The position numbers and the translations under genes are program-made. Positions 7,812-31,600 of a DNA stretch of 64,000 nt are shown here, piece by piece (within the stretch, counting starts at the first letter, position 1; every line of letters starts with the position of its first letter). The notes beneath the pieces were generated by a model that had not been told where the DNA came from, searched no databases, and saw nothing but the letters and a program-made list of their open reading frames with translations. Origin of the DNA: an uncultured Verrucomicrobiae bacterium (GTDB lineage Bacteria > Verrucomicrobiota > Verrucomicrobiia > Limisphaerales > JAFGQR01); NCBI GenBank assembly GCA_963788655.1, contig CAWBHS010000062.1, positions 96,001-160,000 on the forward strand, read 5' to 3'.

Positions 7812-10800
7812 TCACGGCGCTGAGGTTGCAACCAACCGGTAGAAACGCATTTCACCCGAGATGGGCAGCGGATCGGTGATTTGAATTTCGCGGGTGAGCG
7901 GTGAGGCGTTCAGGTTGGTTAACGATTGCCAGTGTCCCGTGGTGAGCGAGTCGCGATACTGGACCGTGTACGATTGGTTCGCCATGGTGACGAAATGCAG
8001 CACCGCGAAACCGCCCAGCGATTGGAGATTCACTTTGACGTTGCTGAGCGGATCGTCCGGATCGGTGCCGTTGAGCCATTCCACGTAATTGCACACGCCA
8101 TCGGCGTCTTCGTCCTCCCAGGGCATGCCGGTGTAGGTCGGATCGATGGGAAAGTCCGCCGCAAAAACAACGGCGTCGGCAATGACGTACAGCGTCGTAT
8201 CGGTGGTGCGAATGACCACGCTGCCGGCGTTGCCCAGATCGAATAAATAGGTGCCGAGCAGATACCAGTTACCGGCATCGATTTGTTCGTTCACTGTCTC
8301 GGTGATCACCCCGGCGGTGCAATGAACGTCCACGGGCACATTGGTGGCGCGGTTGTTGGAAGCCGTCCAGCGCAGGTAAACGCGATACCAGCCACGCAGG
8401 GGCAGGTCCGGTTGGAAGGTAACGCTCTTGGTGCCCTTGCCGGTGTTGCCGTCATGGAGGTAGTCCGCGCGATAGAAACCGGAGTTCGAGGTACTGCTGG
8501 TCCAGTCGCCGACGAGTTGGACGTGGTTGGTATCCGCGTTGTCGAGGACGGTAACCGTTTGGTCTGGTGTCCCAAAATACTCGTTCAAACCAATGAGCCC
8601 CTGCAGTTCGGCAATGTGCGACTGATAAACGCCGCGCGGCGAGGTATTGTATTGCTTGCACAACGCGGCGGCGTTGCCGGTGGCCACGCCCATCTGGCCG
8701 CACGTGTTCATGACGCGCGGGCTGCCCAGGCCAACATGCGTTGCGCTCAAGCAACGTCCGGCCATCATCAGGTTGTCCACATTCGTCGAATAGAGGCAGC
8801 GGAATGGAATCCAGTAAGGACTGATCCCGGTGAATTGGGCGTAGGTCAGAAAGTCGTAATCCCCCGGCCTGGTATAGTGCAGGTCGATCTCGCGGCTTTC
8901 GGTCACCACGGCATCCTCGAAGAAGGGATGATTGCGTACGTCGGATTCGGTGAGCACGTAATCACCGACCAATCGCCGCGACTCGCGTTTGCCACTGATG
9001 TAAGCGACCCAGTCGAGGTCCAGGTTTTCGTTGCCGGCCCGTTGTTTGACGTTCGACCACGTGCCGTAAATGGCCTGCAACAGGTGGTCGCGAATTTCCT
9101 CGGCATCGTAAATCGTGTCGCTCAACAACCCGTATTCCCAATACCAGTCGCCGCGGGTTTGGTAGTAATCCTTGGCCACGCCCATCGCCCAGGGAACGGC
9201 GGGGAACGTAACCGGTTTGCCCGTGTTGCGGGAGTTCCAGGAAAGCGTTGAACCATTACGCATCGAATCGGGCTCGACCGGCGCCAGCGACTCGTTGAAC
9301 GCGGCGCGCGGTTCCCGGCCCGTGCGATACAATGCCCCGGCCCAGTAGCCGATCCAGCCGTCGCCCGTGCTGTCGATGAATACCGGCGCAAAGAACCGGC
9401 GTTCCTCACCGGTGCGGGTGTGTTTGGCATCGATGCTGATGATGCGCGAGCCGTTGGTGTTCGCGGCAAACGCGCGCCATTCGGTGAACAAGTGCAGGTT
9501 CGTCTCCGCCAGGAGCACTTGCAGGCGGGCTTGATCGGTTTGGATAAATTGATCCGAGCCGATCAGGAAGTCGGGCGTGTTGATCTCGGTGACAATGCCG
9601 CCCATCGTGTCGCCGAGCGTGTGAACGCGCACGTCCTGGCTGGCGTTGCCGCCGGGGAAGGGGCGGTCGTGAATCAAAGCCACTTGCAGTCCCTGTCGCG
9701 CCGCTGCGATGGACGCCGCGCATCCCGCAATACCTCCTCCTACCACCACGAGGTCGAAGTTGCCGGCGCTGGGCGGCACGTCGGGTATTCCCAACTGCGC
9801 GCGACGCCAAGTCGTGAGTTCCGGCAGCGAATTGGGCGGCACGAAATTCATGTCCGTGGTGAAGAACAGCGCATCGCAGCGCCCCTCAAAACCGGTGAGA
9901 TCATGCAGGCGAACCTCCGTGGCGACTTGGGCGACAATTACCAATCCGCCGTCCTGCCACAACCAGCTTTGGCCCACGGTGCCAAATGTTGCGCCGGCCT
10001 CGACACCATCCACCGCAACTGTGAACGCACCGGGATGATCGGGCCGCGGCGCGGTCCAGTCTTTGGTGCGTACCCAGAGCCGATAGGCGCCCGGCGCGGG
10101 AAATTGCGCGGTGGTCACGGCGTCCGCAACGGGGTACCCTTTCCCATGGGCCAGGAGGTAAGGTGAGCCCATCCGATCGACGAACTGTTGGTCCACCACC
10201 CAGCCGCCCCGTTCGGCCAAGCTTTCGGCTTCGAGTAGCAAACTGGCGTTGGTGGCCGCCTCGTCATCGATCAACGTGACGATGGCCGAATCCGCCGAAC
10301 CGACCGTGTAACCGTCGCCCGATTCGAGATGGAGCACCACGGTTTCATTGCCTTCCAATTCCGCATCGTCGAGAGGGGTGATGGTAATTGTCTTCGCCGT
10401 GATCCCCGGTTCAAATTGGATCGAGTTGGTGGCGCTGGTCGTGTAATCGACGCCATTGTCAGCCGTGCCGCCAAGCGTGAATTGCACGGCCACGGCTGAA
10501 TTCGTATCGCCCAAAACCCGGTGAATGGTAAACTCGCCTTCCAATCCCAAGCCGCTTTCGTACGTGGACGGCTTGGTGGCCTCGACGGTGAATTCCGGCG
10601 GGTCATTGTCATCGGCGATGCGAACGGTGGCGGTGGTGGGGCCGGCGATGATGTAGGCCGCGTTCGTGTTCAACGTGAGAATCACCGTCTCTTCCGGTTC
10701 CGGCACATTGTCATCCAACGGCACGACCGGAATGGTGACGTTCGTGGCGCCCGCGGCGAATGCCACCGAACCACTCAGCGATTCGTAATCGACGCCATTC

Positions 10801-12332
10801 GAAGCGGTCCCGCTGAGCGTGTAGGTCACCGTCGCCGGCCCACTGGTGTCGCCGTAGCGTTGCAGCGTGAATGCCCCGGGATCATTGCCGGATTCCGTGG
10901 CCGAAGAATCCGTGGCAGTGAGCGTAATGATCTGCACGCCGGAGGGCGGAGGGGTCGGAGCGCCGTAAAACATCACGTCGTCCAACCGCATGAATTCGCC
11001 GGTAGTGTCGGTGTCGTCGAACAGGTACAAGCGGAACTCGACCGGCTGCACCACGCCTACAAATTCGGGATCGTCAAACGTGGCCATCAGCGGCGTGAAC
11101 GAAACAGCGGTGTCATTGCCCGGCACGGAAAGGCTGGCCAGATCGACGGTAAAGTTGTCGAGGCTGGAGCGCACCACGACGTGGGCCGTGTTGAAGGTGG
11201 CGGCCTGGAGCTTGGCTTGAGCCATAATGGCGGAAAAGTTAATCGCGTAGCCGGGATGGGGCGCGAGCGTGAAACTCACGTAACTGTTGCCGGTCACAGC
11301 GCTGGACTCATCCCCGGCGCTGGCGCTCGCTCGCGCATAGAAGCCCGAAGGTGCGGACACATAGGCGCCAGTCCCGTAGCCGTGGCCATTCCCCGTGGAA
11401 CCGCCCGCGCCAAATGTCCCCAATCCACTGCCCGCCGTGGCATTGAGCGCCGTTACCCGCTCGGGATCGGGCAACGTGGCGGCAGCCACCGCGTCGAGGG
11501 TGGCCGCCGTGTTGTCGTTTTCGTTGAAGTAATACGCCGCCAGCAAGCTGAGATCGTTATCCACACCCACGAGCAATTGCGGCCGAAGGTTCACGTCGGG
11601 GGCGCTGTCGTCCTGGAAACGCGAGAAATAGGTGTTGGCGCCTTCGGCTTTGCGTTTCAGCAGCAGGTGGAGCGTTTGGGGGCTGTTCGTCACCGCCGCG
11701 CGCACTGCTTCCACCAGCCCATCCGGACCGGTCCCGCTGTCCGGCCAATACCAGCCGGGACTTCCCCATACGGCTTGGACGGGCGAAGTCCTGGTGCCGA
11801 CGTTGCCGCGCTCGCGCAATTCCGGCCCGACAAATCCTCCGGCGTTGGTGCCGGTGCCGTCCGGATCGTTCCACGTAGCCGTCGCTTCATCGAAAGGCAG
11901 GGTGAGATGAACCGAGTGGGTGGAGCTGCCGCCGGCACCGGCACTGTCGTGAGTAAGGATCAGCGCGGCGCTGTCAATGCGGCTGAGGTCGCCGCCGGCC
12001 AGGTTGGTGAGATAGGAGACATCGAAGGACAGTATCGTCCGGTATGTCGCCGAGTCGTTATTGCCCACCAGCAATGGCGCGCCGTTCTGAGAACTCGAGG
12101 CCTGGTCCGAACGAAGACACGTAGCGTCTATGTTGTAGGCCGCATCCAGGAGCCGGCCGTTGATGCTAATTCCTTCCCAATCGTAAGCGATGCGCAGGTT
12201 GCCTGGTTGAAAACTGACGAACGAGCCGGCGGTAGCCGACCAAGCCACGGCCATCCATAAGGCGATGGTTACGGCAACGACCAAACTCTTGATCCCCCCA
12301 GGGACCGCATAATTCTGAGCGCGCATTTTCAT
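7812..12332 (-). CDS. Secreted modular FAD-dependent oxidoreductase with Calx-beta domains and a Golvesin/xanthan-lyase-type carbohydrate-binding domain
   Basis: Signal peptide; two Calx-beta-like repeats (GTASNGVDY...PLDDNVPEPEETVILTL); DLVVVGGGIAGCAASIAAARQG FAD fold; KRESRRLVGDY; GWYRVYLRW...RATNVP...VIADAV domain; C-terminal RFYRLV domain. Confidence 0.85.
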   Translation of the reverse strand: MKMRAQNYAVPGGIKSLVVAVTIALWMAVAWSATAGSFVSFQPGNLRIAYDWEGISINGRLLDAAYNIDATCLRSDQASSSQNGAPLLVGNNDSATYRTILSFDVSYLTNLAGGDLSRIDSAALILTHDSAGAGGSSTHSVHLTLPFDEATATWNDPDGTGTNAGGFVGPELRERGNVGTRTSPVQAVWGSPGWYWPDSGTGPDGLVEAVRAAVTNSPQTLHLLLKRKAEGANTYFSRFQDDSAPDVNLRPQLLVGVDNDLSLLAAYYFNENDNTAATLDAVAAATLPDPERVTALNATAGSGLGTFGAGGSTGNGHGYGTGAYVSAPSGFYARASASAGDESSAVTGNSYVSFTLAPHPGYAINFSAIMAQAKLQAATFNTAHVVVRSSLDNFTVDLASLSVPGNDTAVSFTPLMATFDDPEFVGVVQPVEFRLYLFDDTDTTGEFMRLDDVMFYGAPTPPPSGVQIITLTATDSSATESGNDPGAFTLQRYGDTSGPATVTYTLSGTASNGVDYESLSGSVAFAAGATNVTIPVVPLDDNVPEPEETVILTLNTNAAYIIAGPTTATVRIADDNDPPEFTVEATKPSTYESGLGLEGEFTIHRVLGDTNSAVAVQFTLGGTADNGVDYTTSATNSIQFEPGITAKTITITPLDDAELEGNETVVLHLESGDGYTVGSADSAIVTLIDDEAATNASLLLEAESLAERGGWVVDQQFVDRMGSPYLLAHGKGYPVADAVTTAQFPAPGAYRLWVRTKDWTAPRPDHPGAFTVAVDGVEAGATFGTVGQSWLWQDGGLVIVAQVATEVRLHDLTGFEGRCDALFFTTDMNFVPPNSLPELTTWRRAQLGIPDVPPSAGNFDLVVVGGGIAGCAASIAAARQGLQVALIHDRPFPGGNASQDVRVHTLGDTMGGIVTEINTPDFLIGSDQFIQTDQARLQVLLAETNLHLFTEWRAFAANTNGSRIISIDAKHTRTGEERRFFAPVFIDSTGDGWIGYWAGALYRTGREPRAAFNESLAPVEPDSMRNGSTLSWNSRNTGKPVTFPAVPWAMGVAKDYYQTRGDWYWEYGLLSDTIYDAEEIRDHLLQAIYGTWSNVKQRAGNENLDLDWVAYISGKRESRRLVGDYVLTESDVRNHPFFEDAVVTESREIDLHYTRPGDYDFLTYAQFTGISPYWIPFRCLYSTNVDNLMMAGRCLSATHVGLGSPRVMNTCGQMGVATGNAAALCKQYNTSPRGVYQSHIAELQGLIGLNEYFGTPDQTVTVLDNADTNHVQLVGDWTSSTSNSGFYRADYLHDGNTGKGTKSVTFQPDLPLRGWYRVYLRWTASNNRATNVPVDVHCTAGVITETVNEQIDAGNWYLLGTYLFDLGNAGSVVIRTTDTTLYVIADAVVFAADFPIDPTYTGMPWEDEDADGVCNYVEWLNGTDPDDPLSNVKVNLQSLGGFAVLHFVTMANQSYTVQYRDSLTTGHWQSLTNLNASPLTREIQITDPLPISGEMRFYRLVATSAP

Positions 12333-22970: not shown

Positions 22971-25900
22971 TCACCGTGAATTGGACTGGGTAACGCGCAG
23001 CGGCACGGCCAGTTCGCCGGTGGCCTTTCCCTCGGTGAGCAACTCGATATGAATACGCGCTTCTCGGGCGGCCGTCGATGCCGGAGCTTGCACGATACAC
23101 TCGATTTGCTGCTCCGTGATTGGCTTCAGCGTCGTCTGCCATAACCGCGGGGCCTTCACTCGGAGCGACGGAGCCGTTACTGCTTCACCGTTCAGAGTAA
23201 ACACTGCGGTCCCGCCTTCGCTGATGGTCGGCGGGGCCGATTCCAACCGCAGCGCCGAGGCTGCCAGCGCCTTCGCCAATCCGTTCTGTGCATCCGCATA
23301 GAGCAGCATCAATGGCTCGGCGGAGACCGTAAGACTGAGGCCGCCGGCCGCGCTTTGCAGCCGGGTGCGGTCGCCGTCCACGTGGACCACCTCGACGGCC
23401 AGGTTTGCCGGCAGCGGCACGCGGATGTCGGTCCTGCCCTCGTCCCGCCACAGCACTTGCAGGCAGCCGCCTCGCACATCGCGAAACAGGTACGCCTGGA
23501 CACCGTTGGGATACTGTTGCTCCTCGACGAACTTCTTGTCGCAGATCCCATTGACCAGATCGTAATACGTGATGGCATCCAGGCGCGGATTGTAGAGGTT
23601 GTATTTGCAGTCGAAGACACAATGCGAATCGCCGAACTGGCCGCGCGCCTTGCCTTGGGGATCGGGATATTGAATCGTAAACCAACTGACCGTCGAGCCT
23701 CCCGCGGCGAAGAACACGGTGAACTTCTTGATCATCTCGAGGGCCACGGCATGCCGGGTTTGCCCTTGGCTGTTCAGACCGAGTTCGGTGGAATGAATCG
23801 GTTTCACGGCGTGATATTTCTCCATCAACGCCCGGTATTCCCGGATGGTTCGGCGCACGTTCGAGTAGTGTTCGTAGATGTGGAAATCGTAGGCGTCGAG
23901 ATAGTTTTGATAGCCAGCCTTGAAATACTCTTCATTCGGTTCGACGGAGGTTCCAATGACGTGGATGGCGGGATCGAACGCTTTGACGGTTTCATAGATG
24001 GCTCGGTAGGCGCGGACGTTATCAAGAACCTTCTGGCCGGTGCCATGCGGTTCGTTGCCCATGGCGATCATGGCCAGCCCCTTGTTGGCGTATTGCTCGA
24101 GAAAGTTCTTCATTCCCTGTCGCAGCGATTCTTCGGTGTATTCCTTGAAACCGTCCCGCTCGATACTGCTGGCGGGCGTGCCGGTGATCCATTTGGCGCC
24201 CAGTTTTTGGCAACGGTCGATGCCCGGGCCCTGGGGTTGGTAAGGTGGTTTGGCGGACCATCCTCCCCAAACGCCGATCTGGCGCAGCCCCAGCCGATCA
24301 GCCAGATCGAAGTAAACGGGAATTCGGCTGTCCCAGTTGCGGATGGTGAAAGGAATCTGCTCTGGCGCGAACTGCTTGCTGATCGCCGGCGGCAGGATGG
24401 CGAAGCCCGAGTATTCCACCTCCGCCGTGTCGCCTTCCTGCGGAATTGCCACGTGCAACTCGTAATACTTGCCCACCCGAAGCCGATTGTTCGGGATCGA
24501 GATTTTCGTGGCATAAACAAATTGCTTCCCGTCACCCTTGGTTCGCTCGAGCTTGGCCTCGCCTGGCTCCAATTGCTCGGCGCCCCAATAATCCCGCACG
24601 AAATACCGCATGACCTGTTGCGCCGTCGGCAGTGGTTTGGCCGCTTCCACCGTCACTTTGAATTGGACGGGACCGCCCGGCAGAAACAGGTTGCCCACTG
24701 CCTCCGTGGCGAGTTTGATGCGCTCGACCCGCTTCTCAATGGGCCCGGTGCTCAACGGAGCCGCCGCAAGGTCGTCCAGCCAGAAGGAACCGTAGGTCTT
24801 GCGGAGTTGAACGCGGAATCTGGCCTGCGCGGCTCCCGTGGGCAGTGTCACCGTTTGCGTTGCCGTTTGCCAATCGTGTTCGCCATACCCGATTCCCACG
24901 GGAATGGTCTCCAACACCGCGCCCGCCCGATTGAAGGCTTCGAGATCAACGCTGCCGTGATACGAGTTATCCGGACTGTGCAGTTTCGCTTTCCACGCAT
25001 ACTGCACCTGCCAGGTTCCCGGACCCACGGTGAAGATCGGGCTGGCGGCCCAGGTCGCGGTCGTCAGCGCGTTCAATGAACGTTGCAAGAGCAGCGCCTG
25101 ACCCTGGCCATTGCGGCCTGGGCCGTCGGGTCGGACTGCGCCGGCGGTTTGCCAGTTGGCCAGGGATGCCGCGGCGTCGAAGGTTTCGGTGTACGCGGCT
25201 GGTTTGATTCTGGCTTCCACCACCACCTCCGCGCGCAGATCAGCGATGAGCAAATCGGGTTGCTTGCCCGCGTGCGATTCAATGTTCAACATCAGTTCCA
25301 TGAGGCGGACGGAATCGTGCCAGACGCCGTCATTGGCGCCGCCCCAATGTTCGCTGCCCGCGATCCCGGTGGGAACAATCTCGACCTCATGCCATTGGCC
25401 ATCAGCCTGAAACGGGATGTTCTTCCGCTGATGGCATTGGTCCGTGCCATCGACCAGCCGCAACGCAAACGAGGAAACGGTTTTCGAGCGCAGCTTCATG
25501 CGGATGACTTTGATGGCCTGAACGTCCAATGCGGCGAATGATTTCCGCACGCCGACATAGGCGCCGCCGCCGGTAAAATCCGCGTGCAGGCGCATGGCGT
25601 TCTGGCCGGGTTCCGGTTGATCGCGAACCAGGTCAAGACTCCCTTTGGCGCCGGCGAATTCCTGGCCCAAGTTGAAGCCCCAGTCCAATTCGCCGGCCTG
25701 GAGCATTTCATCCAGGCGAATCTCTTTGGTGAGCGCCGCCAGCCTGGTGGTGCTGGGGTGCAGCAACACGTCGCTGATCAATACGGTTCCGTTGGTGCCG
25801 AGGTTCCGGCTGAACAGAATGACGAACAACCGACCGGGCTGGTGCCACTTGCCGTCGTTCGCGCCGCTCCATTTTTCGTATTGGGTGGCAATGTCGAGCG

Positions 25901-26363
25901 CCGCCGGCGTGCCCATCGTTTTGAAATATTCCTCGACCGGCAGGACCAACTGTTGCCAGCCGCCCTTTTCGTGAATCTTGAGCCGGATCTGATGGACTTG
26001 TTCGGAACCATCCACCAGCCGGATGGTCAGTTGCTTGGCGCCAGTCGGACAGTTCACCCAAAACGAAAGCGCCTCCACGGGCGTCTCCGGCAGAACGATC
26101 GAGGCCTCGACGTAGTTGCCGCCCTGGGTAAAATCGCCGGAGAGACTCAGGACCGGGTGATCGCGAAAAGGCTCGGCCGCCAGTTCGAGTTTGCCGCGGG
26201 CACCCGGAAACTCGGGGCCATTACCGAATTTCCAACCGCCGGCTGATTGGTGGGCATCGATGAGCGAAACCGGTTGCTGCCCGAGCGCCACGCTCGCCAA
26301 CAGCGGAATGATGCAGCTTGCCAGGCAATACTTCGACCGCGTGCAAAAGGAGGATTGTGTCAT
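22971..26363 (-). CDS. Secreted glycoside hydrolase (clan GH-A, GH39/GH5-like) with three N-terminal carbohydrate-binding-like domains
   Basis: Signal peptide; two homologous WxFxxGxEFxGAxG domains plus a CBM4/9-like domain; GNEP acid/base motif, FHIY, and STELG nucleophile motif. Confidence 0.7.
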   Translation of the reverse strand: MTQSSFCTRSKYCLASCIIPLLASVALGQQPVSLIDAHQSAGGWKFGNGPEFPGARGKLELAAEPFRDHPVLSLSGDFTQGGNYVEASIVLPETPVEALSFWVNCPTGAKQLTIRLVDGSEQVHQIRLKIHEKGGWQQLVLPVEEYFKTMGTPAALDIATQYEKWSGANDGKWHQPGRLFVILFSRNLGTNGTVLISDVLLHPSTTRLAALTKEIRLDEMLQAGELDWGFNLGQEFAGAKGSLDLVRDQPEPGQNAMRLHADFTGGGAYVGVRKSFAALDVQAIKVIRMKLRSKTVSSFALRLVDGTDQCHQRKNIPFQADGQWHEVEIVPTGIAGSEHWGGANDGVWHDSVRLMELMLNIESHAGKQPDLLIADLRAEVVVEARIKPAAYTETFDAAASLANWQTAGAVRPDGPGRNGQGQALLLQRSLNALTTATWAASPIFTVGPGTWQVQYAWKAKLHSPDNSYHGSVDLEAFNRAGAVLETIPVGIGYGEHDWQTATQTVTLPTGAAQARFRVQLRKTYGSFWLDDLAAAPLSTGPIEKRVERIKLATEAVGNLFLPGGPVQFKVTVEAAKPLPTAQQVMRYFVRDYWGAEQLEPGEAKLERTKGDGKQFVYATKISIPNNRLRVGKYYELHVAIPQEGDTAEVEYSGFAILPPAISKQFAPEQIPFTIRNWDSRIPVYFDLADRLGLRQIGVWGGWSAKPPYQPQGPGIDRCQKLGAKWITGTPASSIERDGFKEYTEESLRQGMKNFLEQYANKGLAMIAMGNEPHGTGQKVLDNVRAYRAIYETVKAFDPAIHVIGTSVEPNEEYFKAGYQNYLDAYDFHIYEHYSNVRRTIREYRALMEKYHAVKPIHSTELGLNSQGQTRHAVALEMIKKFTVFFAAGGSTVSWFTIQYPDPQGKARGQFGDSHCVFDCKYNLYNPRLDAITYYDLVNGICDKKFVEEQQYPNGVQAYLFRDVRGGCLQVLWRDEGRTDIRVPLPANLAVEVVHVDGDRTRLQSAAGGLSLTVSAEPLMLLYADAQNGLAKALAASALRLESAPPTISEGGTAVFTLNGEAVTAPSLRVKAPRLWQTTLKPITEQQIECIVQAPASTAAREARIHIELLTEGKATGELAVPLRVTQSNSR

Positions 26364-26417
26364 TTCACCACCGAATTTGAAGGCGGACCGTAATCGAATC
26401 AAGGTTATTGGCTCACC

Positions 26418-26519
26418 TCACGGCACCGTGGTGGCGGTCTCGGCCTGCCGGCGCTTCAGCGCGTCCACCTCCGCTTGCAATGCGGCCAACTCGGCCACAA
26501 TCCGGCGTTGCCGCTTCAT
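26418..26519 (-). pseudogene. hsdS 3'-tail fragment copy 3 (MKRQRRIVAELAALQAEVDALKRRQAETATTVP)
   Basis: Matches the HsdS C-terminal conserved helix EQRRIVAELD.LQ.EVD.LK.LQ; its ATG overlaps the upstream gene's TGA. Confidence 0.75.
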
Positions 26520-27028
26520 GTTTGATTCTCCTTTGAATACTGCCACAAGGCGCGGTCCAGTATCCGCATTGAAGCATTGGCCTGTTGGACGAGACTGCGG
26601 CAGAATTCGGTGTATTTCTGCCAAAACTGAAAGTCGTATTGTTTGGGGACATCGTGGTTCAGAGACCACAAAGCGCGATAATCTACAATGGGATACGGGT
26701 CTGAATGGAAAAAGTGGAGAATCACGGATGCCGTGGGCCAACTGACACCCCTCAATAGCGTCAGCACCTCTATTCGTAGCTGGTCCGAAGGCGTGCTGAG
26801 TGCGCAATGCGTCACATCCCTGATAAAGTCCGCAGAGTTTGTGCGGCAGCGCGGTTGCGTGCGGGGCGACTTCCAATGGCAAATCGCGATGAATTCATCC
26901 TTGATAAGAAAGCCTCTCTGCTTGACTGCTCCAAAGACAGAAAGGGCTGCCTTATCGTCATACTCATAACGCTCTGCCCAGTGCTCAATTTCTCCAACAG
27001 GAAACCTCAATTGGAACGCTGTGCTCAT
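26516..27028 (-). CDS. Uncharacterised 170 aa protein with helix-hairpin-helix DNA-glycosylase-like motif
   Basis: LTLLRGVSWPTASVILHF...YPIVDYRA resembles the HhH motif plus downstream catalytic Asp of HhH-GPD glycosylases; lower GC than flanks. Confidence 0.6.
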   Translation of the reverse strand: MSTAFQLRFPVGEIEHWAERYEYDDKAALSVFGAVKQRGFLIKDEFIAICHWKSPRTQPRCRTNSADFIRDVTHCALSTPSDQLRIEVLTLLRGVSWPTASVILHFFHSDPYPIVDYRALWSLNHDVPKQYDFQFWQKYTEFCRSLVQQANASMRILDRALWQYSKENQT

Positions 27029-27093
27029 AGTTCTCTTTTGAAGGCGCGGTCGAGGATGGCGGAGAGGAATGCGTCCAACTCGGCGCTGATCAT
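27025..27093 (-). pseudogene. hsdS 3'-tail fragment copy 2 (MISAELDAFLSAILDRAFKREL)
   Basis: ILDRAFKxEL* is the typical HsdS C-terminus; near identical to ~27973-28030; stop overlaps ATG of the next gene. Confidence 0.8.
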
Positions 27094-27127
27094 GCGCTGC
27101 GCATAAATTGGAATTTAGGTTTTTTGT

Positions 27128-27969
27128 TCATTTAATCATCTTCCTTCTCGCATTCGATGGTTGCTTGCCCAGCTTTTTCAAAATCAGCTTGGCAAACTCA
27201 ATCGGGGTTTCGTCTTTTAGAGAGATGTGTCCGACTGTATGTGGTATGCCCGGTAATTCTGTTTCGTCGAAATATGCAGGCAAGATATATTCTTTGCTTT
27301 CTTTCAACGCTCTCGCCAGAGCTGAACGGCGTTCATGTCTCGTCCACATTTTCTTGGCGTAGGATTCTGAAACAAAAATAGCGCAATATTGGCCTGATTG
27401 CTGATACACTAAGTCGAAGTGCTCGGCCAGATCTTTTCCCCAAAGGTCTGCTTGTTCGAATCCGTCGTAGAAAACTCTTACGTCATTCGAACGAAGATAT
27501 TTCGCCACGCGCTCTACATATTTGCGGTCCTCTCCCGCGAAAGACAGCACCACGTCATAAGTCCGGTGAAGTCTCGACAGCATCGCTGTCGGAAGGTCGC
27601 CGTCCTTTACGGCCCAATGGGTGCGGTTAAACTCCCAGTTATGAATGCCAAGCCGATCAACAAATTCACGCACGACCGCCCTTGAAAAGCACCCCTCCTC
27701 ACTGAACTTGAAGGTCAATTCTTGGCGGCCGACCTTAATCTGTCGCAAGTAACCGCAACGAACGATGTCGGTGTTCGGACCTTCAGTGGTAGCCTCATAC
27801 ATCAACAAAGCAGGGACGTGCTCCAACTGCTTCAAGGAGGGGAGATTGCTTATTACTACGGACTCCGCCTCAGGGCCATCGCTGAACTCCTTGAACCTCA
27901 CCAGTTCCATCTCATCAGTTGGTCGGTTTCCCACGCCGTTGGATTCGATGTTACAAGTAAGCTAAACAT
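27128..27969 (-). CDS. TIR-domain protein with an N-terminal domain ending RTHWAVKDGDL (frameshift near 27912)
   Basis: YDVVLSFAGEDR...VFYD...LWGKDL...FVSESY...WTRHE TIR domain retaining the Glu at the catalytic position; the start MFSLLVTSNPTAWE at 27969 lies in another frame. Confidence 0.85.
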
Positions 27970-27972
27970 AGG

Positions 27973-28098
27973 TCATAGATTTCCTTTAAAGGCGCGGTCG
28001 AGGATGGCGGGCAGCAACGGATCCAACTCGGTGGCGGTTTCGGCTTGCAGACGCTTGAGCGCGTCCCCCTCCATTTGCAGATCATGTAGTCCTTTCAT
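27973..28098 (-). pseudogene. hsdS 3'-tail fragment copy 1 (MKGLHDLQMEGDALKRLQAETATELDPLLPAILDRAFKGNL)
   Basis: 41 aa mini-ORF matching the HsdS C-terminal coiled coil; shares DNA segments with both other copies. Confidence 0.8.
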
Positions 28099-28206
28099 TT
28101 AGTAAAAGGCCCTCGTGCTATTTGCTTTCCGCACGAGTGAACGCCGAAGGCTGAAGGCTGAAGTTCTCCCGTCTCGTGTCACCAGTCTGTTTTCAGCATT
28201 TAGCAT

Positions 28207-28410
28207 TTATCCTTTAGCCTTGTGTCCGCAGGAAATTGGCGTTGCACGCAGCCCACCGACTTCAGCGGCAGGAATCCAGACTGCTTTCCCGTTGCGCCAT
28301 CCGGCGAGCGGCCTTGACTGCCGCCGGTGTTCTTCCACGACCTTGGCCACGGCGCCACTCAACGCCTGCATGGCCTTCTGAGTCAGAGATGATTTGTTTG
28401 ATTTCTTCAT
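28207..28410 (-). CDS. Small basic protein (67 aa), resembles small partners of zeta-toxin-like ATPases
   Basis: KAMQALSGAVAKVVEEHRRQSRPLAGWRNGKAVWIP pattern; family assignment is from recollection only. Confidence 0.5.
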   Translation of the reverse strand: MKKSNKSSLTQKAMQALSGAVAKVVEEHRRQSRPLAGWRNGKAVWIPAAEVGGLRATPISCGHKAKG

Positions 28411-28663: not shown

Positions 28664-31600
28664 ATGCATGGGCCGGAACAACAACTGCGTTTGCTTACCG
28701 CCGCCGATTGTGAAGTGCGCTTTGACAATCTCACGCGGCAGCTTTACGCCACCGACGCTTCGATTTACCAGGTCGAACCGCTGGGCGTGGCTTTTCCGCG
28801 AAGTGCCGCGCAGGCGGCCTCGGTGATTCAGGCAGCGGCTGAGGCGGGCGTATCGGTCATTCCCCGGGGCGCCGGCAGCGGATTGGTCGGTGGGGCAATT
28901 GGCCATGGCTTGGTGGTCGAGTTTTCCCGCTACAATCGGCAGATCACCGATCTGAACCTGGAGCAGCGCACGGTGAACGTGGGCGCCGGAGTAGGTACTG
29001 GACCAGTTGAACGCGTTCCTCAAACCGCACGGCTACGGTTTCGGCCCGGACGTGGCCACCAGTTCGCGCGCTACGTTGGGCGGCATGATTGCCAACGATT
29101 CCTCCGGCGCGCGGACGCCGGTTTACGGCACCACCGCCGAGCATGTGCGATCGCTCGAATTGGTGCTGGCGGATGGCCGGGTGGAAACCACCGGCTCACA
29201 CGGCGGCACGTTGGCGCCGCTGCGAGAATTCGCCGACCAATTGATACGCCACCATGCTGCCGCCATCGCCGAACGGATGCCCGCCGGGGTTGTTGAAACG
29301 CTGGCCGGGCTACGGCATCAGCCGGTTGTTGCGGGAACCGGGTAACTTGCACCACGTGCTGGCGGGTAGCGAAGGCACGCTGGCAGCCATCATGTCGGCG
29401 GAACTCCGAATCGTTCCTTTACCCCGTGCAAAAGGGCCTCGGCGTCGTGTTCTTCGCTTCGATTGCCGAAGCCATGCAGGCCACGGTGGAATTGCTCGAA
29501 CTCAAACCCGCGGCCATCGAGCACGTGGATCGGGTGTTGTTCGATCAAACGCGCGGCCAGCTTCAATTCCAGGCCGCGCGCGATCTTCTCGAATTGGAGG
29601 CCAAGCCGTGCGAGGCCTTTTTGATCGTCGAATTCTACGACGAAGCGACCGAACGATTGCAGGCGCTGGCGAAAAAGAAACTGGGTTTGCGCACCCGGCT
29701 CGTAAATACCCCTGCGGAAATGGATCTCGTTTGGGGTTTGCGCAAGGCCGGGCTCACTTTGTTGACCGGTCGTCCCGGGCCCGCCAAGCCGGTGACGGGC
29801 ATTGAGGATGCCGCCATTCCGCCCAAGCATTTGCCCGAATATGTTGCCGGGTTGCAATCCCTGCTTAAACCGTTGGCCGTGACCGCTTGCTTCTACGGTC
29901 ATGCGGCTGCGGGGTTGCTCCACGTGCGGCCCGTGCTCGATTTGCACCAGGCGGAGGACTTGCGGAAGTTCCGTCAAATCGCGGACGAGGTTGCCGCGCT
30001 GGTACGGCAATTCAAAGGTTCCCTCTCCGGAGAACACGGCGTTGGCATGGCGCGCACGGAATACTTGCGCGAACAACTGGGCGCGGAAGTCTTCAGGGTG
30101 ATGCGCGAGATCAAGCGAACATTTGATCCGCGGAACGTCTTTAATCCGGGCAAGGTGGTGGGGACGGATGAGGAAGAGGTCGAGGCGGATGCGGGCTTTG
30201 CGAGCGGTTCCAAGGCTTCTGCCGACGAGACGTCGGCACAAACGACGGACAGAGCGTGTTCCGCTACGGACGGAAGTCGGACGGCGCAGCGCCTGTTCCA
30301 AACTGCCGGCAAGATGCCGGCAGCACGTTGGGCGGACTACCGGATTGATCGGCATCTGCGGATGGGCGCGGGTTACGAGTTGAAGCTGCCATTCGAACCG
30401 GAGTTGGCGTTCGCCGCCAAAGACCACTCGTTCGTTGGCAACCTGGAGCAGTGCAATGGGTGCGGTGGCTGCCGCAAGGAAACGCCCACCATGTGTCCGA
30501 CGTTTGTCGCCACCGGCGAGGAAATCATGTCCACGCGCGGCCGGGCCAACACGATTCGCGCCGTGCTGGAACAACGCGGCCTCACCGGCGTAGATCCGTT
30601 GCAGTCGGCAGAGTTGGAAGCCGCCCTAAGCAATTGTCTCTCGTGCAAAGCCTGCACCAAAGAATGCCCGTCCAATGTAAACCTGGCCTTGCTCAAGGCG
30701 GAATTGCGGTACGCGCGGCACCGACGCGATGGTCTGCCACTGCGGGTGCGGTTGATCAGTGCGGTGGACTTGCTGGGCCGGTGGGGGTGCCGGATGCCCG
30801 CGTTGGCCAATGCCGCCCTGCGTTGGCGGTGGCTGCGCTGGCTGATGGAGAAGACATTGGGATTCTCGGCGCAACGCTCGTTGCCCACCTACGCAGCGGA
30901 ACGGTTTGATGATTGGTTTGCCCGCCGGACCGCCACGCCGCCAGCGCATCGCGGCCCGGTCATTTTGTGGGATGACACGTTTGTGCGTTACCATGAACCG
31001 CACATCGGCCAAGCGGCGGTGGCCGTGCTGGAAGCGGCCGGCTTTGAAGTGATCCTGCCGCGAGGCCGCCAATGTTGCGGTCGGCCCGCGTTCAGCCAGG
31101 GAAACTTGGACGAAGTGAGGCGGCTCGGGCGGCACAATCTGGATTTGCTGAAAGACCCGGCCACTGAAAGCGGCAACGGGACTCGGCGGAAAATGCTTGA
31201 AGGCAGTACCGGCCAAATCGCTGGCATCCTCGGGAAGGCCGACGTGCCCATTGTGTTTCTCGAACCGTCCTGCTGGGCCATGTTCAAGGAAGATTACCGG
31301 GAATTGAAATTGGCCGGGGCAGACCAAGTAAGCCCGCGGTGTTTCCTGTTCGAACAGTTTATCGAGGATCTGCTAAGCCGCGAACCGGAGGCTTTACGGT
31401 TCAATCAAGTGCCGGGAACCATTGCCATCCACGCGCATTGCCACGCGAAATCATTGATGAATCCCGCCTTTATGGCCCAGTTGGCGCGCCGTTTGCCAGC
31501 GCGTAACGTAACGCTGCTGGACACCGGCTGTTGTGGCATGGCGGGCGCCTTCGGCACCCTGGCCGCCAAGTATGAACTCTCCCGGATGGTCGCGCAACCG

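Follow-up and report, generated by a model that had tools for sequence, protein, structure and literature searches.

We analyzed a stretch of 64,000 nucleotides (nt), hereafter the window, from an uncultured Verrucomicrobiae bacterium (contig CAWBHS010000062.1). At positions 26418-28410 of the window, a chain of small open reading frames (ORFs) joins a TIR-domain gene and a gene for a protein of 170 amino acids (aa) to three short fragments of the 3' end of hsdS, the gene for the specificity subunit (HsdS) of Type I restriction-modification (R-M) systems. The frames follow one another through shared or closely spaced stop and start codons. The same alternation of hsdS fragments (the tails) and unrelated genes (the cargo) recurs at other loci, where the tails carry an in-frame ATG well above control values. 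The tails may be recombination scars that have been kept as relay mini-ORFs for termination-reinitiation of translation, by analogy with the integron leader ORF-11, a reading that we consider about equally likely to be right or wrong. What is new here is the scale of the arrays, the rules of their junctions and the evidence for tails kept as coupled ORFs; a literature search covering few subscription journals and no supplements turned up phase-variable hsdS loci, defense islands and long target duplication, and returned no description of hsdS-tail arrays with cargo or of tail mini-ORFs.

A chain of touching reading frames in the window

Every feature of the array is carried by the minus strand, and G+C content dips to 0.46-0.55 between about 26400 and 28200, vs about 0.60. 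The features are listed below in the order in which this strand is read; matches to the tails were scored with a hidden Markov model (HMM).

28207..28410, minus strand: ORF of 67 aa; its TAA abuts the next ATG; no family match
28099..28206, minus strand: ORF of 35 aa, described from sequence only; its TAA abuts the ATG of tail A
27973..28098, minus strand: tail A, a mini-ORF of 41 aa; PADLOC model Specificity_I matched at positions 353-391 of 391 (E 2.8e-4); tail HMM 75.6 bits, positions 12-52
27898..27969, minus strand: 5' fragment of the TIR gene, with the true start ATG 27969 and 23 codons; a 1-nt frameshift cuts the frame
27128..27910, minus strand: main TIR frame, 260 aa from ATG 27910; PF13676 TIR_2 (E 7e-16); PADLOC PDC-S66 (5e-17) and ThsB (7e-7)
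27090..27131, minus strand: bridging ORF of 13 codons, with its ATG on the TIR stop and its TGA on the ATG of tail B
27025..27093, minus strand: tail B, a mini-ORF of 22 aa; repeat D1, 83% over 59 nt; HMM positions 29-52
26516..27028, minus strand: the intact 170-aa cargo gene, with 1,386 relatives; AlphaFold2 (AF2) predicted local distance difference test (pLDDT) score 94.8; HhH-GPD glycosylase-like fold
26418..26519, minus strand: tail C, a mini-ORF of 33 aa, the proximal half of a tail; repeat D2, 84% over 50 nt; HMM positions 4-34
26364..26417, minus strand: decayed distal half of tail C; tblastn passes through the stop with weak similarity
22971..26363, minus strand: gene of 1143 aa for a secreted CBM6/GH5-like protein; weak Pfam matches

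The original prediction for this DNA described four consecutive ATGA junctions within 26418..27131, and re-reading of the minus strand bore out all four to the nucleotide. The ATG of the 13-codon ORF (27131-27129) overlaps the TIR stop TGA (27130-27128), and the TGA of that ORF (27092-27090) is in turn overlapped by the ATG of tail B (27093-27091). The 170-aa gene begins with an ATG (27028-27026) on the TGA of tail B (27027-27025) and ends with a TGA (26518-26516) under the ATG of tail C (26519-26517), which itself stops at 26420-26418. Tail A has its own ATG at 28098, as had also been proposed, and its TGA (27975-27973) ends 3 nt before ATG 27969. The chain reaches further upstream through two gapless stop-then-ATG junctions, in which the TAA of the 67-aa ORF (28209-28207) directly abuts ATG 28206 of the 35-aa ORF, and the TAA of the latter (28101-28099) directly abuts the ATG of tail A.

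A single ATGA junction is ordinary in this genome, where ATGA ends 13.9% of the 8,014 frames of at least 250 aa, opening an ORF of at least 13 aa in 10.6% and one of at least 100 aa in 4.3% of these frames. Multiplied together, the four base rates give about 3e-5, a rough figure calculated post hoc with the chain already known. A scan of the minus strand of the window for promoters and terminators, limited to sigma-70 type promoters, found nothing.

Identity and state of the tails

HsdS has two target-recognition domains with conserved coiled-coil regions between them. Tail A corresponds to the last 41 residues of an HsdS, and the PADLOC model of the Type I specificity subunit matched it over the last 39 positions of that model. 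It contains the conserved C-terminal helix of HsdS, which ends in an A-F-K-G-E-L type motif, and its 3' end carries the Shine-Dalgarno (SD)-like AAAGGAAA followed by the letters CTATGA. Tails B and C are direct repeats of the distal and proximal halves of tail A (59 nt at 83% and 50 nt at 84%, respectively). Alignment to the full hsdS tail of a genome of the same order identified tail B as a tail with an in-frame internal deletion, whose last codon and stop (CTA TGA) provide the ATG of the 170-aa gene. By the same alignment, tail C is a whole tail with a decayed distal half and a premature TGA (26420-26418); weak similarity past this stop runs in the same frame to ATG 26363 of the 1143-aa gene. 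A Pfam scan gave no match for any of the three, of which only the last 22-41 residues are present; they are HsdS fragments and not members of PF01420.

The tail HMM was built from loci other than the window and replaced a strict motif search, which missed proximal-only tails. The source genome is a metagenome-assembled genome (MAG) of 8.96 Mb in 115 contigs, 86% complete. Since this incomplete MAG yielded no other close tail copy, and only distant hsdS-like matches, the array of the window stands without its hsdS. Tail matches were present in eight of 301 genomes of the phylum, the source genome included, and lay mostly inside full hsdS genes.

Arrays of tails and cargo at other loci

Relatives of the 170-aa gene led to one set of genome loci, of which the best 80 were examined, and a separate set of 78 metagenome loci was picked by tail similarity alone. 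Tails of the window family stood beside the 170-aa relative in five of the 80 genome loci (L017, L018, L029, L069 and L079), a decayed tail, judged by eye, stood beside it in L066, and the remaining loci had no such tail. Locus L017 repeats the unit of the window, i.e., a tail, an overlapping start, the 170-aa gene, an ATGA and a decayed tail. In L069 the end of hsdM is followed by hsdS and then by cargo and tails, and in L079/L152 ten tails with cargo between them lie within 4.5 kb. The array on a complete chromosome (L145) consists of hsdR, a 229-aa gene, hsdM, hsdS, an IS3-type transposase on the opposite strand and four cargo-and-tail units. This transposase, which has rve domains, is located at 9989-10870 (+), between hsdS and the first cargo.

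In the metagenome sample, tails outside a full hsdS (orphan tails) were present in 39 of the 78 loci, with at least two in 22 of the 78 and 86 in total. All 86 are co-directional, and no tail match was seen on the opposite strand in the 78 loci. Downstream sequence of 1 kb or more is available for 28 full hsdS genes, of which 15 had orphan tails behind them. Tail matches also occurred in 14 of 401 Chloroflexota genomes, for a total of 30 matches (one row coming from the unpublished G532). Frames of at least 290 aa account for seven of these, frames of at most 100 aa for 22, and a 226-aa frame at the start of a contig for the remaining one. The window's own order has orphans as well, among them a proximal-only tail (L159) whose start overlaps the stop of a 350-aa gene as ATGA.

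The 52 ORFs directly behind metagenome tails included seven TIR_2, four pentapeptide-repeat and two GNAT proteins, and one each of GmrSD_N, SLATT/DUF4231, PTE and DUF6941; 36 of the 52 had no Pfam family. Cargo of the genome arrays also comprised HEPN, a HAD-TIR fusion, DUF559, a dCTP-deaminase-like protein, DUF3800 and PIN. By these matches, the cargo of the arrays looks like defense genes.

Some further features of the tails were observed across arrays. In L152 and L145, two tail classes that differ almost only synonymously in their last 12 codons stand side by side in one array, and the tails of L069 have endings closely similar to those of the two classes. Several arrays have a full tail of one class, then about 50-100 nt, then a 5'-truncated tail of the other class, and then cargo. 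An in-frame insertion of about six residues (H-K-G-M-I-S type) occurs at one spot in the proximal tail in L146, L145 and several small tail proteins, which come from unrelated samples.

Cargo-to-tail junctions keep a start codon

The original prediction proposed asking whether an open frame, an ATG and an ATGA overlap are preserved in orphan tails elsewhere beyond chance expectation, and the outcome was positive. An ATG was counted if it was in frame with the tail and lay downstream of the last in-frame stop and upstream of the homology. By this measure, 73 of the 86 metagenome orphans have an in-frame ATG, vs 38 and 19 for the other two frames of the same spans and a trinucleotide expectation of 30.9; the ATG is combined with the canonical tail end in 61 of the 86 and is followed by an A in 53 of the 73. 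Measured from the end of the preceding ORF (50 aa or longer), the offset of this ATG is most often -4 (16 orphans) or -1 (11), and falls between -4 and +7 in 39 of the 86, with a spread from -14 to +19. The genome sample gave an ATG in 31 of 43 tails vs 15.6 expected; these expected values are simple ones. The excess of ATGs and the offset peaks together support the view that tails are kept as translated leaders or relays.

The junction of cargo stop, ATGA and tail start seen in the window is shared by the 170-aa gene of L017, the 350-aa gene of L159 and a 394-aa pentapeptide gene of L152. On a larger scale, 1,131 clusters of proteins of 28-90 aa, as predicted by gene callers, resemble one 51-aa tail ORF. 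In 36 tail-only proteins chosen from these clusters by length and coverage, residue 2 was K, N, I, M or T in 27, S or R in five and another residue in four; the codons for K, N, I, M and T begin with A. In the same 36 proteins, the Met is separated from the conserved Q-R-R-I-V motif by a short run of variable residues, up to about 20 in length.

Tail-to-cargo junctions

Homology between tails ends exactly at the hsdS stop codon, beyond which the sequence is cargo-specific, and the cargo starts on that stop or within 20 nt of it in most cases, as the distribution in the two samples indicates.

Genome loci, 37 tails: 4-nt overlap in 19 (8 ATGA, 11 GTGA), 1-nt overlap in 1, gap of at most 20 nt in 12, longer gap in 3, no ORF of at least 40 aa in 2
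Metagenome orphans, 70 tails: 4-nt overlap in 22, 1-nt overlap in 0, gap of at most 20 nt in 26, longer gap in 8, no ORF of at least 40 aa in 14

The cargo start is thus placed at -4 to +20 nt in 32 of the 37 genome-sample tails and 48 of the 70 metagenome orphans. Of 31 overlapping starts, 22 are preceded at 4-16 nt by an SD-like motif, vs a background of 13% of windows, and 17 of 26 cargo starts at least 10 nt from the tail have an SD-like motif of their own. The sequence xTA TGA, which creates an ATG on the stop, ends 18 of the 70 orphans vs 3 of the 32 full hsdS genes.

Decay of end-of-array tails, a trend suggested by the small genome sample, was not supported by the larger one, in which 37 of 40 internal and 14 of 17 terminal orphan tails had an intact 3' end (p = 0.35).

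A possible relay by termination-reinitiation

In the scheme that these observations suggest, small, mostly defense-type genes form stacks of cassettes downstream of a Type I hsdS, with direct repeats of the hsdS tail between them. The repeat unit is the last 20-50 codons of hsdS, and each copy would be a recombination scar doubling as a mini-ORF. Its ATG lies on or beside the stop of the upstream cargo, most often as ATGA, and its native stop on or beside the start of the downstream cargo, where xTA and TGA give ATGA, and TTG and TGA give GTGA or TGATG. Shortly before this start, the last tail codons (K-G-E-L) contain an SD-like AAGGAG or AAGGGAG. The function would most likely be exerted in cis, with ribosomes that end one ORF restarting on the next, and promoterless cargo, often without an SD of its own, could thus be translated along one mRNA. 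A homologous crossover with a circular cargo-plus-tail unit, or an insertion with long target duplication, would fit the origin of the scars. The array of the window would then be a local, partly decayed copy, with a frameshifted TIR gene and an intact glycosylase-like gene, from which hsdS itself has been lost.

The geometry of the junctions, their recurrence and their excess over controls were observed, and translation of the mini-ORFs and raised expression of the cargo are what we infer from them. Several observations weigh against such a relay. Of the 86 orphans, 13 are without an ATG, and 14 of the 70 are not followed within 60 nt by an ORF of 40 aa or more. The orphans are related to one another, both inside an array and across arrays, and the ATG and junction counts therefore overstate the number of independent events. 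The frequency of intact 3' ends in internal and terminal tails (37 of 40 vs 14 of 17) does not differ significantly and thus gives no sign of selection tied to the downstream cargo. RNA folding of five tail regions gave z scores of -0.9 to +2.0 vs shuffles, with no sign of an unusual fold that hides the cargo start and would call for a relay. The synonymous excess of one tail class, described below, could reflect selection on the peptide or descent from functional hsdS genes. As for the window, its array has a frameshifted TIR gene and a tail C that stops prematurely, and neither hsdS nor a promoter was found; the relay may be vestigial there. A search for RNA runs containing this region listed none, and contigs of four soil DNA runs contained only 151-nt pieces of it, with none of its joints and nothing at the TIR frameshift.

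The touching ends might instead be a by-product, with the tails being only scars of cassette insertion or of homologous recombination at the hsdS 3' end, and the junctions reflecting tight operon packing and common ancestry among a small number of cassette types, without a selected role for tail translation. An ATGA end is frequent in the genome (13.9% of long frames), native hsdS is often trailed closely as well (next gene at -4 to +20 nt in 17 of 32), and many tails are truncated or frameshifted, all of which this explanation would accommodate. The junctions are not independent, because arrays in different samples share near-identical tails, and R-M genes are documented to insert with long target duplication (PMC2853133). 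What it accounts for less easily is an ATG excess confined to the tail frame (73 vs 38 and 19 of 86), the recurrence of the junctions with unrelated cargos and with varied second residues, the occurrence of CTA and TTA, both rare Leu codons, before TGA in 18 of 70 orphans vs 3 of 32 full hsdS genes, and the intact 3' end of 51 of 57 classified orphans; on balance we consider it unlikely. If cassettes were cut and joined at a short core, as integron cassettes are at GTTRRRY, and this core happened to contain a start and a stop, the overlaps would be a record of the recombination mechanism and not of translation, in agreement with the exact end of tail homology at the stop codon and with the ATGA at both ends of several cargo ORFs. 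Such a joint seems very improbable given how variable the junctions are, with 26 of 70 tail-to-cargo gaps of up to 20 nt, often with an SD of their own, and cargo-to-tail offsets from -14 to +19. Additionally, no recombinase gene adjoins the L145 array, where the opposite-strand IS3-type transposase is the sole candidate, and the tails have no hairpin signal.

It is also conceivable, and in our judgment quite improbable, that the tail mini-ORFs are working peptides, i.e., that a free C-terminal coiled-coil helix of HsdS would bind HsdS, HsdM or a cargo protein in trans as a regulator, adaptor or decoy. Full-length orphans score like hsdS-attached tails (87-103 bits), small proteins that consist of a tail alone form more than 1,100 clusters, with many of them exactly 48-51 aa long, and the second tail class differs from its class consensus by 16 synonymous and 5 non-synonymous changes, against an expected synonymous share of 0.24. 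This excess may stem from time spent within working hsdS genes, and the first tail class shows 13 synonymous and 21 non-synonymous changes from its consensus (expected share 0.25). The 5' ends of the tails vary from HMM position 2 to 31, compensated frameshifts alter the peptide while keeping the frame to the canonical stop (L152, 761-904; L069, 3604-3804), and the in-frame deletion of tail B likewise keeps the frame and changes the peptide. Moreover, the source genome and L029, both incomplete assemblies, hold orphans without a related full hsdS. The original prediction had presented the tails as possible translated leaders or HsdS-mimicking peptides, rather than inert scars. A leader or relay role is supported by the ATG excess and the offset peaks, and a mimic is without direct support in view of the varied 5' cuts, the peptide-changing compensated frameshifts and the lack of a related hsdS in the source genome. 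To say "rather than scars" was too strong, because the tails are recombination scars as well.

Comparison with known systems

The relay proposed here has its closest parallel in integrons, where ORF-11, ORF-17 and ORF-18 (in attI1) and short ORFs within attC promote translation of the cassettes through termination-reinitiation (PMC8876359). As with those leaders, a short ORF sits inside a recombination site, its stop lies on or near the start of a promoterless cassette that is often without an SD, the start region rather than the peptide sequence would matter, and the cassettes are stacked one way. The tails share with ORF-11 a stop that overlaps the next start or lies within a few bases of it, and a start of their own that is placed for initiation or reinitiation. 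Unlike in integrons, the repeat is the coding 3' end of hsdS and not a folded attC. The relay would also act at every cassette, whereas in integrons it does so mainly at the first position. Pfam scans of selected ORFs found no intI or attI around the L145 array or in the window, and single-strand folding with RNA parameters detected no attC-like hairpin in five tail regions (z -0.9 to +2.0).

Insertion with long target duplication of R-M genes was reportedly described by Nobusato in 2000. It was treated by Furuta, Abe and Kobayashi in 2010 for inserted R-M genes (PMC2853133), the main text of which contains neither "hsdS" nor "specificity subunit". The likeness to that text lies in direct repeats of tens to hundreds of bases that flank inserts in or near R-M loci without a transposase or integrase. 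The inserts it describes are whole R-M systems from single events, whereas here the repeat is always the hsdS tail and the inserts are other small genes, stacked in up to 10 copies.

Phase-variable hsdS copies carry target-recognition domains and typically lie in inverted repeats on which a recombinase acts. Several partial hsdS copies per locus, with recombination in conserved regions, are a likeness to phase-variable Type I loci with extra truncated hsdS copies such as SpnD39III (PMC4190663 and PMC7394358). Unlike such copies, all 86 orphans are direct repeats without recognition domains that alternate with unrelated genes, and neither an opposite-strand tail, as a shufflon of hsdS would have, nor an orphan with recognition domains occurred in the 78 loci. 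Defense genes such as PrrC are embedded in Type I R-M operons next to hsdS, and the arrays resemble them in that accessory defense genes ride in the hsd operon beside hsdS; to our knowledge, neither repeated hsdS tails nor relay mini-ORFs have been described for these embedded genes.

The TIR gene, the 170-aa gene and their surroundings

The original prediction placed the start of the TIR gene at ATG 27969, which was right, but the gene is split. Two TIR homologues (L166 and L167, 54-55% identity) start with the same N-terminal motif as that encoded at ATG 27969 and read straight into the TIR frame, while the frame of the window breaks after about 20 codons, which points to a 1-nt deletion near 27912-27910. 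Because of this frameshift, the frame from ATG 27969 is limited to 23 codons, and the TIR domain is read again from ATG 27910. The stop of the 23-codon fragment lies 10 nt beyond ATG 27910, so that the two TIR pieces overlap. The frameshift may be a real mutation or an assembly error. By sequence match, the resumed frame belongs to PF13676 TIR_2 (59 bits vs a cut-off of 28). Both full-length homologues have different 3' ends and no tails, so that the junctions from TIR to the 13-codon ORF and from this ORF to tail B have no comparison there.

The family of the 170-aa gene, with 1,386 relatives amongst 1,425 candidates, is well conserved and has no Pfam model. The AF2 model of the protein (pLDDT 94.8) found its best Protein Data Bank match in Ogg (3knt_A; E 1.6e-3, template modeling score 0.53, 15% identity). 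By fold similarity alone, the protein weakly resembles Ogg-type HhH-GPD glycosylases, a group that combines the HhH-GPD fold with a catalytic Asp or Lys; it has no Pfam match. In L050 and L055 the gene of this family starts on the TGA of a 518-aa ORF, and elsewhere it comes after ORFs of about 400-1,170 aa.

The 1143-aa gene starts with ATG 26363, at the expected position of the next cargo start, and may be the last cargo or simply part of the surroundings. No relative of its first 400 aa was found in 150 other genomes of the order (E 1e-20). An empty site was sought by a DNA search of 41 genomes (40 relatives and the source genome), which matched only the flank with a flavin adenine dinucleotide (FAD)-oxidase gene and scattered tails; this flank is conserved. 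Insertion with long target duplication would leave direct repeats of more than 30 bp around the insert and a single copy at the empty site of a relative; the repeats are present (50-59 nt at 83-84%), and none of the relatives was seen to have an empty site. At 30286-30334, in the region of the FAD-oxidase-like gene, a repeat of about 48 nt recurs at 90-98% identity on contigs C4, C65, C72 and others, with copies in tandem arrays spaced by about 121 nt (C4) and about 229 nt (C65). DNA matching the 67-aa ORF at the upstream end of the chain occurs in two other genomes of the order, at 80% (G717) and 72% (G709); the G717 copy, about 60% identical in translation, lies away from any tail.

Implications for Type I R-M loci

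A broader interpretation, which we offer tentatively as a possibility, is that the hsdS 3' end is the repeat unit of a gene-capture platform with TIR-rich cargo-plus-tail cassettes, in which the tail would be both a recombination handle and a translated relay through which the entire stack stays expressed as part of the hsd operon, forming a functional analogue of the integron without an integron integrase. If the relay is real, Type I R-M operons would have a built-in expression route for any small gene that lands behind hsdS, and this would explain how promoterless defense genes without an SD stay active in arrays. The signature of tail, ATGA, cargo, ATGA and tail could then be used to mine for new defense genes. 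Altogether, the arrays would represent a case, outside integrons, of a recombination scar that has been reused for gene expression.

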